From an uncultured bacterium (GTDB taxonomy: Bacteria; SAR324; XYD2-FULL-50-16), in assembly GCA_965602905.1 (NCBI GenBank), contig CBFCZY010000003.1, positions 86,064-150,063 of the forward strand: a stretch of 64,000 nucleotides of DNA, written 5' to 3'. Of this stretch, positions 22,090 through 24,914 are shown piece after piece. Numbering within the stretch: the stretch's first letter is position 1; each line of letters begins with the position of its first letter. The notes under the pieces were generated by a model. It saw nothing but the letters and a program-made list of their open reading frames with translations. It made no database searches and was not told where the DNA came from. A program made the position numbers and the translations under genes.

Positions 22090-22408
22090 GATTTTTTTTA
22101 TGGTCAAAGTTAAACTAGAACTCTAAAACAACTCCTTTGAATGATCAACTAGAATCCAATCAAAATAGCCGAGCAGAGCTTATTGTAAATAAGATTAATG
22201 CCTGACTGAGTGTCAGTCTGTAATAAATAAACCTTTTGCTCATCCTTAAAAAAAGTTCATTTAAGGTTTGCCTCTTTAAATAATCTTACTTGCTCTAGGG
22301 TGAATCTTGAGGTAGTATATGAGGAATGAATCACTCTAAGGCCTTGAAAAAAAAGCTTTTACAGTGATCTCTTTTGTGTTATACATAATACAACAGGTTA
22401 GATTTCTT

Positions 22409-22732
22409 ATGGAACAAAACTCCGGTGGCTCTAAAGCCTACCAGATAACAGTCAATCGCCAGCACTTTAGTTTTAGCTGCGACGATGGTGAAAGCCACGT
22501 AAGGCAGGTAGAAAAAAGAATTAACGACGCTGTTGCGGCGCTTAGCCCAGATGGATTAGGCCCACAGTTGAGTGAATACGCCATGAAAATCGCACTACTT
22601 TTAGCGGACTCAGCAGTCCGTTTAGATAGTGGGATGGATCAAAAAGAGGTGACAGCGCGAATTTCGCCCCTCTTGGACGAGCTAGATCGTCTCACCATTG
22701 TAGATGTTAGAGAAGACGAAGAAACAGAATAG
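22409..22732 (+). CDS. zapA: cell division protein ZapA
   Basis: The ITVNRQHFSFSCDDGESHVRQVEKRIND block and the helical C-terminus match the ZapA pattern. The start is set at the first ATG (M16) because the tracked start is GTG. Confidence 0.7.
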   Translation: MEQNSGGSKAYQITVNRQHFSFSCDDGESHVRQVEKRINDAVAALSPDGLGPQLSEYAMKIALLLADSAVRLDSGMDQKEVTARISPLLDELDRLTIVDVREDEETE

Positions 22733-22894
22733 ACCAAAATGGTCTGAACATTTCTGCCCTGTTCGTTATTGTTAGTAAAATTGAGCCTTACTCATGTTTC
22801 GGGGCTGGTCTCTGTTAGTGGTGTGCATGCCCTTTTCATTAAGGGAAGCCTAAAGCTATTATGCTACTCCCACCTGGTAATCCAGGTTCAACAT

Positions 22895-23092
22895 ACTATT
22901 AGCAAACGGCAGGGTGGTTACTTTTAAGCTACAAGATAGCTTTGAGTAGAACTCGTACTATTAGCCAAAGGTTGAGTGGTTACTAAATACCACCTTGACC
23001 ATGAGGTTAGTACGGTTGTTTTAAGCTGCAACGCAGCTTTATAAATAGTAGCCCACGCTACTAGCCATAGGCTAGGGCAGTTACTTTAAAGG
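22895..23092 (+). repeat. three degenerate tandem repeat units (ACTATTAGCnAAAnGG...GTGGTTACT...AAGCTnCAAnnnAGCTTT)
   Basis: Units lie at about 22895..22956, 22957..23059 (with an insertion) and 23060..23092. Each carries an AGCT..AGCT hairpin with compensatory changes (AGCTA-caag-aTAGCT versus AGCTGC-aac-GCAGCT). Confidence 0.6.
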
Positions 23093-23190
23093 AAGTGACC
23101 CCCTTTCGGAGTTCATCCGAATCATCCGCCCAAGGGTTAGAAAGGCTGCTAAGCCGCAAGCGGAAACGCTCCGGTGTTGTTAATGGCTGA

Positions 23191-23288
23191 ATCTTAGGCC
23201 CTGCTGATACTATACTTCGTAGCCCCATAGGTAAAAATCCCCAAGGCTTAATAGGAGTAGCTTTTTACTAAAGCAAAATTCAGTAGAG
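23191..23288 (+). repeat. 98-nt direct repeat, copy A
   Basis: ATCTtAGGCCCTGCTGATACTATACTTCGTAGCCCCATAGGTAAAAATCCCCAAGGCTTAATAGgaGTAGCTTTTTACTAAAGCAAAaTTCAGTAGAG. It differs from copy B at 4 of 98 positions. Confidence 0.8.
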
Positions 23289-23346
23289 TAACCCTGAAGA
23301 TCTTGAGCCAAGTTGTTGGTTCCTGTGTGACAGGAAAGAAGGCCGC

Positions 23347-23444
23347 ATCTCAGGCCCTGCTGATACTATACTTCGTAGCCCCATAGGTAAAAATCCCCAA
23401 GGCTTAATAGAGGTAGCTTTTTACTAAAGCAAATTTCAGTAGAG
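23347..23444 (+). repeat. 98-nt direct repeat, copy B (156-nt period)
   Basis: Near-identical to copy A (94 of 98 positions). The spacer contains the TTCCTGT-gtg-ACAGGAA hairpin. Confidence 0.8.
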
Positions 23445-23554
23445 GAAATTTGAGTTTAATTTGGCGGTGAGAGAAAAAAAGAACCACCTAATGTTTAGTG
23501 CTACAAAGTCATTTGTGGCCCACGCTATAAGCCTAAGGTTGGTAGCTCTTGAAG

Positions 23555-23596
23555 AAGCCACATGCTCAAGTTTTGAGTATGTGGCTTTTTTTTTCT
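23555..23596 (+). terminator. strong Rho-independent terminator (plus strand)
   Basis: AAGCCACAT-gCTCAAgttTTGAGt-ATGTGGCTT: a 9-bp outer stem plus a 5-bp inner stem, followed by TTTTTTTTTCTTT. Confidence 0.7.
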
Positions 23597-23685
23597 TTAA
23601 AATGGGATCTCTATCAGCCGTGAACTTGCTTTTTGGCGCTTGAAAGCACAAGGTAATCTTCGCATTTAAAAAAAATAGGAACAAA

Positions 23686-24099
23686 ATGAAACAGGCTGAA
23701 TACTTTGTAATTTGTGAAAAGGTGATTACCGATACTTCTGGTAAAAATAGCCTGATCAATCTCTTTGAAAATGTGAATACTGAGAGTCTACCTGTTAATT
23801 TGCCTCCCTTTTGTTTTTCTGGAAAATTGGAATTCCCGGAACTCTTAGGTCAGGAAGCAATATTTAGACTGGTTGCAGAAAACCCCATGGGGGAGCAAAA
23901 GACTGCCGTAGATAATATTAAAATGCCAATCAATAACAAGAGATTACATTTGAACTTATTCATTCAGGGGATGACCTTTAGCTTGGCTGGCGATTATTTG
24001 TTTGCTTTGGAAATGAAAGAGGATGAGCAGTGGCAAAGAATTGCCCAGACTAGTTTGGAAGTGAAGGTGAACGACTCCACTAAACCTACTATTAACTAA
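23686..24099 (+). CDS. hypothetical protein (137 aa)
   Basis: AGGA sits 8 nt upstream of the ATG. No domain recognised. Confidence 0.5.
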   Translation: MKQAEYFVICEKVITDTSGKNSLINLFENVNTESLPVNLPPFCFSGKLEFPELLGQEAIFRLVAENPMGEQKTAVDNIKMPINNKRLHLNLFIQGMTFSLAGDYLFALEMKEDEQWQRIAQTSLEVKVNDSTKPTIN

Positions 24100-24264
24100 A
24101 CCTATTGTTTTGAATTTTAGTTTGGCTTGGATGACTTAAGGCCTTGCAGTTGGATTAACAAAGACTGCCTACAGCTCTGCTGATAAAGGTGGTCCCAGAA
24201 AATACTGAAAAAATTAACTAAAAACCACTGCCAAAAAAATCAGTCAAAACACCACCCAAAAAAA

Positions 24265-24558
24265 TCAGCCAAAAAAATCGACACGGCCATTTTCGTCACG
24301 GCCAGGTTTATTGTGCTTTTTTTTCTGTTTGTTGTTTTCCCTATTTTTTATATTTTCACGATCTCGCGCCTCAGCTTCTGATTTGCCGACATTATCAGGA
24401 TCATGCACTTTTCCCTTGGCGTTAACATGTTCCTTTTCTTTGACCACGTTTAAAACCTGAGAGCCGTTGGGAAGCATTTGTGCTTGCGCCTCGGCGAGTT
24501 TTTGCACCCTAGGAATCTGGCTTAAAAGGACTTGCATATTATGGAGGTCAATGCTCAT
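24265..24558 (-). CDS. hypothetical highly charged protein (97 aa)
   Basis: Its start overlaps the stop of the STAS gene by 4 nt. Lys/Glu/Asn-rich C-terminus. Confidence 0.4.
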   Translation of the reverse strand: MSIDLHNMQVLLSQIPRVQKLAEAQAQMLPNGSQVLNVVKEKEHVNAKGKVHDPDNVGKSEAEARDRENIKNRENNKQKKKHNKPGRDENGRVDFFG

Positions 24559-24914
24559 TTTACCTTTTTTTTGAGTTTAGCAGTCAGGCTTTGTTGGTCT
24601 TGCGCCAATAATAATTTTTTGGTTAAGCCTGCGGCGGCAAAGATTTTTAAGTGTTTTTCTTGGGTTGTTAAAATCGCCACCTTTTCTATTGTTTGTGCAA
24701 TTAGGAAGCCAACCAGAGCCAAACCAGAGGCTGTGATCTGGGTCGTATAGTTTAGGTCCAAAATAAAGCGTTCAAAATGGTCATTTTGCAATTTTTTGAT
24801 CTCTGAAATCACTGCTAAAGCTTCAGCCTCGTTCAACACACCTGAGATTTTAAAAACGATGGTCAGGGGCAGTTCTTTCGGGAAATCTATGGTGGTTTTT
24901 TCTGGTTTTAACAT
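24555..24914 (-). CDS. STAS-domain protein (anti-sigma-factor antagonist, SpoIIAA-like)
   Basis: 119 aa. STAS-like core LDLNYTTQITASGLALV. Confidence 0.7.
   Translation of the reverse strand: MLKPEKTTIDFPKELPLTIVFKISGVLNEAEALAVISEIKKLQNDHFERFILDLNYTTQITASGLALVGFLIAQTIEKVAILTTQEKHLKIFAAAGLTKKLLLAQDQQSLTAKLKKKVK

Follow-up and report, generated by a model that had tools for sequence, protein, structure and literature searches.

A structured, repeat-built trailer behind the 6S RNA gene of a SAR324 bacterium

What occupies about 0.9 kb of bacterial DNA in which no credible open reading frame (ORF) can be recognized, within an otherwise compact region? The question is raised by the segment between zapA and the next plus-strand gene (22733-23685) in a 64,000-nucleotide stretch from an uncultured SAR324 bacterium (contig CBFCZY010000003.1 of assembly GCA_965602905.1; we call this whole stretch the window, and positions refer to it unless otherwise indicated). 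An initial annotation, made from the sequence alone, had proposed the segment as a candidate structured non-coding RNA locus, rich in repeats and hairpins and perhaps including the 6S RNA gene (ssrS). We found a full-length ssrS immediately behind zapA and, directly 3′ of it on the plus strand, a trailer of about 670 nt (22925-23596) ending at an intrinsic terminator (Table 1). On balance, we consider it probable that zapA and ssrS are transcribed together with this structured, non-coding trailer, that the trailer is under selection, and that the transcript ends at the strong terminator.

A 6S RNA gene followed by a non-coding trailer

The absence of credible ORFs, on which the initial annotation was based, was borne out. 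The ORFs lying wholly between the zapA stop codon (22732) and the start codon of the following gene, which encodes a DUF6941 protein, do not exceed 60 amino acids; the one longer ORF (107 amino acids, TTG start, minus strand, 23436-23759) spans the terminator and the start of the DUF6941 gene. None of these ORFs is conserved in the nearest related genome (L006), the lengths of the gaps in the alignment of the trailer with its relatives are not multiples of three, and six-frame translations searched against Pfam (E ≤ 1) gave only two chance-level matches, both on the minus strand. For these reasons, we conclude that 22733-23685 is non-coding. A decayed fau/ygfA or EVE pseudogene was considered and rejected, as the six-frame search revealed no residual protein similarity.

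6S RNA, a regulator of RNA polymerase, is among the best-studied bacterial regulatory RNAs; members of the family bind the sigma-70 holoenzyme and serve as templates for product RNAs. The match to the Rfam covariance model scored 92.7 bits (gathering score 46.4, E = 3.5e-17) and extended over model positions 1-187 of 187, defining a gene of 177 nt that starts 15 nt past the zapA stop codon, on the same strand. The structure line of the family (closing stem, central bubble and terminal stem-loop) is satisfied except for a few non-canonical pairs, and the closing stem (22754-22767/22905-22917) was the minimum free energy (MFE) pairing at every precursor length tested. The hairpin CCTGG-taat-CCAGG (22873-22886), which had been listed separately, belongs to this RNA. 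The suspicion that ssrS lies 3′ of zapA was therefore correct, and 22748-22924 is a full-length, canonical 6S RNA, an ordinary new member of its family. The Rfam model also detected the gene in the relatives L004, L006 and L008, and no second full-length 6S RNA was detected in the segment (Rfam, E ≤ 10). Two further possibilities concerning this RNA were rejected. The repeat units described below do not compete with its native closing stem, since units B and C pair with the 5′ strand with a probability of about 0 and the native stem remains the MFE structure; and complementarity of the trailer to the likely product RNA (pRNA) template region of 6S was at noise level (score of 14, versus 19 for the null).

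That the repeats and structure extend beyond a single 6S gene, as had been suggested, was evident from the folding of the trailer. The plus strand of 22925-23600 had a predicted energy of -226 kcal/mol, with a z-score of -8.55 relative to shuffled sequences; the minus strand was much less exceptional (z = -3.46), and the trailer of the sister lineage L008 reached -8.3. Searches of Rfam, at the gathering threshold and at E ≤ 10, yielded only chance matches for the trailer (eukaryotic long non-coding RNA, small nucleolar RNA and microRNA models, and a trpB motif at 21.5 bits versus 59). ARAGORN identified no transfer RNA or transfer-messenger RNA in it, and no similarity to plasmid and phage records was found. 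The plus-strand terminator, which the initial annotation had placed at the end of the locus, was recovered by a terminator scan and is exceptionally stable (-26.4 kcal/mol, z = -8.2) and conserved in L006.

The neutral yardstick for comparisons of the window with L006 was taken from 318 four-fold degenerate codon sites in the flanking genes, which are 54% identical. Relative to this value, conservation was high for 6S RNA (99%), the two copies of the three-way-junction element described below (75% and 73%), unit C with its hairpin (74%), the hairpin preceding unit E together with that unit (74%) and the terminator (78%). The trailer can thus be described, from these alignments, as a chain of constrained structured modules joined by freely evolving linkers, because module identity lies above the neutral value and that of the linkers at or below it. 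The proposal of a structured non-coding RNA locus is supported by the plus-strand fold, the above-neutral conservation and the compensatory changes in relatives; conservation in related genomes held for the modules, 6S RNA and the terminator, but not for the linkers 23101-23182 and 23447-23502. Modules have been gained and lost between lineages, and their number varies even between strains.

The relatives available for such comparisons were few. A search for the 6S pattern in the genome collection returned only the L006 contig, a 6S 19-mer had no match in the metagenomes, and a scan of the metagenomes with the CcmF protein recovered relatives with no more than 47% identity. ZapA searches, with the single sequence and with a profile, yielded four clusters and a DUF6941 search two; the element and the DUF6941 gene occurred together in only two genomes. 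As a separate observation on 6S RNA, the gene differs from its L006 counterpart (377-553) at one of its 177 positions despite the 54% four-fold identity, which is unusually strong conservation even for 6S.

Modules of the trailer

Table 1. Features of the zapA-ssrS locus and its 3′ neighbour (window positions)
Feature	Position	Strand	Description
zapA coding sequence	22409-22732	+	Pfam ZapA, E = 6.3e-06, above gathering score; upstream neighbour, probably same transcription unit
ssrS (6S RNA)	22748-22924	+	Rfam RF00013 covariance model
Hairpin H1	22926-22942	+	AAGCUA-caaga-UAGCUU then UUUGAG, directly 3′ of 6S; -4.2 kcal/mol
Units B1 + B2	22953-23015	+	Two diverged copies of the 6S 3′-terminal unit, jointly forming a 63-nt hairpin
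Hairpin H2	23023-23039	+	AAGCUGC-aac-GCAGCUU then UUAUAAAU; copy of H1; -7.2 kcal/mol, z = -3.7
Unit C	23058-23102	+	Third copy of the 6S 3′-terminal unit, with its own hairpin (23075-23102)
Middle stretch	23103-23182	+	Poorly conserved; hairpins TTCGG..CCGAA (23095-23111) and GCG-GAAA-CGC (23160-23169)
Element copy 1	23185-23286	+	P0 hairpin (23185-23200), then 86-nt three-way junction
Repeat spacer	23291-23340	+	Hairpin UUCCUGU-guga-CAGGAA (23320-23337)
Element copy 2	23341-23442	+	P0 (23341-23356); P1 (23357-23363/23436-23442)
A-rich linker	23447-23499	+	Variable; indels relative to L006
Hairpin (23500-23519) + unit E	23500-23550	+	Last diverged unit copy (CCCACGCUAUAAGCCUAAGGUUGGUAGCUCUUGAAG); 23048-23071 repeated at 23515-23538
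Intrinsic terminator	23551-23596	+	Terminator scan; 19-bp stem, 3-nt loop, stem-loop to 23591, T9 run
DUF6941 gene	23686-24099	+	Pfam PF22091, E = 2.9e-12; downstream neighbour, ATG at 23686

The short repeats of the trailer are copies of the 3′ end of 6S RNA, an origin that the initial annotation had missed. The unit combines the terminal ~30 nt of 6S, which supply the 3′ strand of its closing stem, with a small hairpin, and recurs downstream in diverged copies. The clearest match is that between 22956-22984 and 6S positions 22894-22922 (83% identity), with a local alignment score of 33, whereas dinucleotide shuffles gave 19.2 ± 2.2, with a maximum of 28; the similarity of 23058-23091 to 22896-22928 scored 26, below this maximum, and is marginal. 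Diverged copies were also recognized near 22990-23029 and 23519-23556. The hairpin formed jointly by B1 and B2 is stable (-23.6 kcal/mol, z = -3.5), and unit B1 is confined to the lineage of the window, the alignment having a 35-column gap at this place in L004 and L006. Fourteen units from four lineages could be aligned, with CTATTAnCAAAGGTTAGGGTGGTTACTTTTAAC as their consensus. An AGGTTAG core is common to the downstream units of the different lineages, at the place of CGGCAGG in 6S. The core AGGUUAG..GGUU is kept in all four lineages, and a motif AGGYU recurs in the trailer, with seven copies.

The motif TAGCCnnAGG, which is the 5′ part of the short unit, had been reported as occurring six times. 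The exact motif is present only twice (22962 and 23062), and six exact copies do not exist; there is nonetheless a recurrence in a looser sense, with AGCCnnAGG found three times and TAGCC-N4-AGG twice more, making about five loose copies. The background frequency of AGCCnnAGG (nine matches per 128 kb, both strands) is far below its density in the trailer.

All the hairpins listed in the initial annotation were found where it had placed them, and the compensatory pairing that it had described was confirmed by comparison with relatives. In L004, the ortholog of H1 reads AAGCUGC-aaa-GCAGCUU, a compensatory change from A-U to G-C; this hairpin is absent from L006, and H2 is present in L003, L004 and L006. 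The pairing of the unit C hairpin is kept in L006 through one A-U to G-C change, and the hairpin at 23500-23519 (-9.0 kcal/mol, z = -3.0) differs from its L006 counterpart by two compensatory changes and one broken pair. The middle stretch has a 19-nt indel relative to L006 and many broken pairs in the consensus fold.

The unit has been amplified differently in the sister lineage L008/L009 (ZapA 77% identical to that of the window, 6S at 80 bits). In L008, 5.5 tandem copies of a 35-nt unit (89% matches) form an array that begins inside the last 9 nt of 6S; no regular tandem array was identified by Tandem Repeats Finder in the window, where, as in L006, the units are degenerate and unevenly spaced. 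Past its 35-nt array, L008 has a second tandem repeat that looks unrelated (827-881/954-1008; at least 55 nt, 100% identity, period 127). The contig ends inside this repeat, which contains the hairpins GCUCU-caac-UAGAGC and GCAAUAGCA...UGCUAUUGC, and the sequence with which it starts (AAAAGATCGCTCT) recurs in L006 after the second element copy (about 1019-1031).

The strongest repeat of the trailer had also escaped the initial annotation. It comprises 107 nt (23185-23291 and 23341-23447) with 93% identity and a period of 156 nt, and each copy contains a distinct structured element in which a three-way junction follows a small hairpin. The consensus fold was obtained with RNAalifold from six copies. 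Helix P1, formed in copy 1 by CUGCUGA (23201-23207) and UCAGUAG (23280-23286), closes the junction; P2, P2a and P2b form a long arm with a conserved internal loop (CCAWA/CCAA), and P3 pairs GCUUU with AAAGC. The nucleotides of the internal loop and the junction are conserved, as is the AACCUGAAGA block just 3′ of the element. The hairpin of the repeat spacer occurs only in the lineage of the window and is absent from L004 and L006, and immediately 5′ of the two elements the sequences bear no relation to each other, with no common promoter.

Comparison of the copies provided support for this structure. Standard pairs made up 96.6% of the pair cells, versus 27-56% when the 3′ partners were slid by one to three columns; three of the six pairs of P2 show double changes, and one position has five pair types; and the covariation score was reached by only 2 of 500 column shuffles. 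Four diverged copies (20-30% apart), each folded alone, gave the same architecture. The two copies present in L006 share 80% identity, and 69-78% with the copies from the window, L003 and L004 (the window group); although 20% diverged, these L006 paralogs retain every helix through compensatory changes. On the minus strand, several of the invariant G-U pairs would turn into A-C mismatches, and the structure is therefore that of the plus-strand RNA.

R1, a covariance model derived from the copies, scored copies 1 and 2 at 130.5 and 129.6 bits, respectively, and found only the known copies in the 64-kb window and the other sequence scanned; BLAST and R1 revealed no other copy of the 156-nt unit in the window. 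A mobile or dispersed repeat finds no support within the 64-kb window, which contains no further copies, or in the plasmid and phage records, and 86 pattern matches in viral contigs were attributed to chance (R1 E-values > 1). The number of units varies within the species, as there are two in the window and at least three in the strain contig L014, which is 99.7% identical elsewhere. The contigs L001, L002, L003 and L004 end at 23237-23409, inside the 156-nt repeats. Public metagenome-assembled genomes (MAGs) of the clade are likely to be fragmented at this locus, and the 156-nt repeats explain the assembly breaks of the lineage here.

The 3′ half of the L006 element resembles the short unit, so the whole trailer looks like the elaboration of one ancestral unit derived from 6S, an inference from sequence resemblance. 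Separately, the 5′ arm of the terminator (UUGAAGAAGCCACAUGCUCAAG; 23549-23570) resembles the start of the 156-nt unit (GAAAGAAGGCCGCAUCUCAGG; 23330-23352), and the terminator could represent an incomplete third unit that has been remodelled.

Transcription and competing explanations

Indirect evidence for transcription was obtained from contig coverage in public assemblies. In ERZ25073499, the contig corresponding to window positions 22345-23401 (L004; zapA, 6S and the trailer as far as the second repeat) had a coverage of 254×, and that corresponding to 23628-24713 (L016; DUF6941 gene), which starts 32 nt past the terminator, a coverage of 2.7×. The two contigs represent the same lineage, at ~90% relative to the window, and coverage thus falls about 100-fold across the terminator. 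We infer that such assemblies are RNA-derived, because DNA of one genome could not change a hundred-fold in coverage over 230 nt, and that an abundant transcript ends between 23401 and 23628, where the terminator sits. The high-coverage contigs run unbroken from zapA through 6S into the elements, and only contigs of low coverage yielded CcmE, the product of the divergently oriented neighbour. At the other end, the starts of seven contigs, which come from five assemblies and represent two lineages, fall no more than 10 nt from position 22345, about 65 nt 5′ of the zapA start codon, which suggests a common 5′ end of the zapA-ssrS transcript. The shared start (22338-22347; position 1 of L003, L004, L005, L008, L010, L011 and L012) lies at TTGAAAAA(A/T)AAGGC. 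A search for a sigma-70-type promoter near 22345 gave nothing convincing.

These observations are consistent with a scheme in which zapA, ssrS and the trailer would be made as one abundant transcript stopping at the terminator. 6S RNA would then be cut out of this longer transcript, by analogy with E. coli, in which it is processed from an ssrS-ygfA transcript (PMC7641849), and the trailer would occupy the position held by fau/ygfA in proteobacteria. In the most speculative step of the scheme, the modules would most likely act as repeated units, either as stable processed RNAs or as repeated binding sites for a protein or an RNA, co-expressed with 6S. Repeated units are favoured over one large fold or a switch because the modules fold independently, are individually constrained and vary in number. 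A more specific version is possible, although it falls well short of being probable: the trailer would be a modular companion RNA of 6S, derived from the 3′ end of 6S, released with it from one precursor and offering multivalent binding sites through its AGGUUAG..GGUUAC units and tandem 86-nt three-way junctions. The factor bound might be linked to 6S or RNA polymerase, such as a nuclease for maturation or turnover, or an RNA-binding protein.

Several points weigh against a selected, structured trailer cotranscribed with zapA and ssrS. The RNA origin of the ENA assemblies is deduced solely from coverage, and coverage is a contig average in which the 6S part could dominate; a search for the sample type of the ENA and SRA records found no paper in which they are mentioned. 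The stretches 23101-23182 and 23447-23502 are, at 44% and 43% identity with L006, no better conserved than the neutral 54%, with indels in both, so that about a fifth of the trailer is unconserved. Folded as single copies, the elements reach modest z-scores (-1.3 to -3.0). All the collections searched contained about four independent lineages, which makes the covariation statistics thin and limits generality. No partner or target of the modules was found, and simple roles, such as the blocking of 3′ exonucleases, which would need no conserved three-way junction, must still be allowed for.

These points overlap with those that would make the trailer evolutionary debris, in which slippage duplicated the 6S 3′ end and the 156-nt unit, with no function beyond the terminator, the RNA being read through only because 6S has no efficient terminator of its own. 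The unstable number of modules (the B1 indel, two versus at least three 156-nt copies, and the 5.5-copy array in L008), the two stretches at or below neutral identity and the small size of the clade, in which conservation is judged from few comparisons, are all compatible with such an origin, and for the linkers the description is correct. It is contradicted for the modules by conservation and covariation: the elements and units C and E retain 73-75% identity versus 54% at four-fold sites, the L006 paralogs have kept all their helices through compensatory changes, and the AGGUUAG..GGUU core has persisted in four lineages. We therefore consider it improbable that debris accounts for the trailer. 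It is quite improbable that the 156-nt units are independent tandem small RNA genes, of the PrrF1/PrrF2 or Qrr kind, merely adjoining ssrS; they are indeed near-identical tandem copies that both possess a compact fold and a conserved 5′ block (AUCUCAGGCCCUGCUG), but the unrelated upstream sequences offer no shared promoter, neither copy has a terminator of its own, and the high-coverage contigs link the elements to zapA and 6S.

Two further explanations involve the DUF6941 gene. The layout is one typical of attenuation (tandem structured elements, a terminator, a gap of 89 nt and an ORF of the same orientation), the DUF6941 gene is also the next one in L006, and the internal loop and junction nucleotides are conserved, as would be expected if the three-way junctions were tandem aptamers of an undescribed riboswitch-like leader, with the terminator controlling read-through into this gene. 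We regard such control as highly unlikely, given that no alternative pairing for the 5′ arm of the terminator was found beyond the level of shuffles (window, -11.8 versus -12.0 for the null; L006, -9.8 versus -9.8), that ~105 nt, in part unconserved, separate the second element from the terminator, and that copy number varies within the species. Moreover, no promoter-like site was found between 6S and the elements, no Rfam riboswitch matched even at E ≤ 10, and coverage drops ~100-fold across the terminator. The idea that the short repeats constitute a ToxI-like type III antitoxin array, with the downstream gene as its toxin, draws on the 5.5 × 35-nt array of L008 and the position of the terminator between the repeats and a small ORF in the window. 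It is largely refuted, and we give it almost no credence: the DUF6941 protein is predicted to form an immunoglobulin (Ig)-like beta sandwich, for which PADLOC and NCBIfam gave no match and no resemblance to ToxN was seen, the units are degenerate and irregularly spaced in the window and L006, and the array is continuous with the 6S 3′ end. A sponge of the CsrB/RsmZ type was rejected, as the six GGA motifs in 676 nt do not exceed the background of 7.9 ± 3.2.

Neighbouring genes and comparison with known systems

The closest named homolog of the ZapA protein of the window is that of a MAG labelled 'SAR324 cluster bacterium'. The DUF6941 gene probably lies outside the zapA-ssrS-trailer feature. 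The AlphaFold2 model of its product (predicted local distance difference test score, pLDDT, of 94.8) is an all-beta Ig-like sandwich that weakly matches RhoGDI, RbmA and the Ig-like domain of AlkC; the family has ~60 representatives at 50% clustering. Further downstream, close to 6S, two small overlapping genes on the minus strand (24265-24914) are conserved in L006; one encodes a protein of 119 amino acids that weakly resembles STAS-type anti-sigma-factor antagonists (TIGR02886, E = 0.002, well short of the cutoff) and the other a lysine-rich product of 97 amino acids with no family. Elsewhere in the window, TAGCCCAAGG (plus strand) and TAGCCTCTAGG (minus strand) lie no more than 30 nt apart at 212-241, a motif of a kind like that in the trailer.

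In beta- and gamma-proteobacteria, ssrS always directly follows zapA, and the genes usually found after ssrS in proteobacteria, fau/ygfA or EVE, are protein-coding (PMC7641849). The locus described here shares with this arrangement a full-length 6S gene immediately 3′ of zapA on the same strand. It differs in that the host belongs to SAR324, and is not a proteobacterium in the narrow sense, and in that a 670-nt structured trailer takes the place of fau/ygfA or EVE, of which no remnant was detectable.

Duplication of 6S sequence is known from the 6S paralogs of B. subtilis (6S-1/6S-2) and Legionella (6S2), which are whole genes at separate loci; here, it is the last ~30-35 nt and the following hairpin that have been duplicated, in three to six tandem copies directly behind the gene. 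CsrB, RsmY and RsmZ are non-coding sponges composed of repeated small structured modules, the number of which varies between relatives, and such sponges carry many GGA motifs, typically in hairpin loops. The trailer resembles them in its repeated modules and their variable number, but it is AGGYU that recurs, and GGA is not enriched. ToxI antitoxins are arrays of near-identical 34-45-nt repeats beside the gene for a ToxN/CptN/TenpN-type endoribonuclease. The 35-nt repeats of L008 and the terminator before the next gene are similar, whereas the repeats here are derived from 6S and degenerate in the window, with no ToxN-like toxin. Tandem aptamers, of which the glycine riboswitch is an example, are comparable with the two adjacent junction folds upstream of a terminator and an ORF, from which they differ by the absence here of expression-platform pairing and of an Rfam match, and by the variable copy number.

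We know of no locus at which the 3′ end of 6S has been tandemly copied into new folded elements, although our targeted literature search was not completed; no paper joining 6S RNA and SAR324 was found. To our knowledge, RNA regulation has been little studied in SAR324, a widespread and uncultured group. If the modules are functional, this locus would show how an existing RNA can give rise to a new structured one, and would provide a new RNA motif for SAR324; if a companion RNA of 6S is indeed released from the precursor, it would represent a new class of regulatory RNA born from the 6S gene. For annotators, the ORF-free kilobase after zapA is not to be taken for a gap in assembly or gene calling. 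By comparison with the systems above, 6S RNA itself is ordinary here, and what is new is an ssrS unit with a structured 3′ part built of repeats, including a tandem three-way-junction motif.

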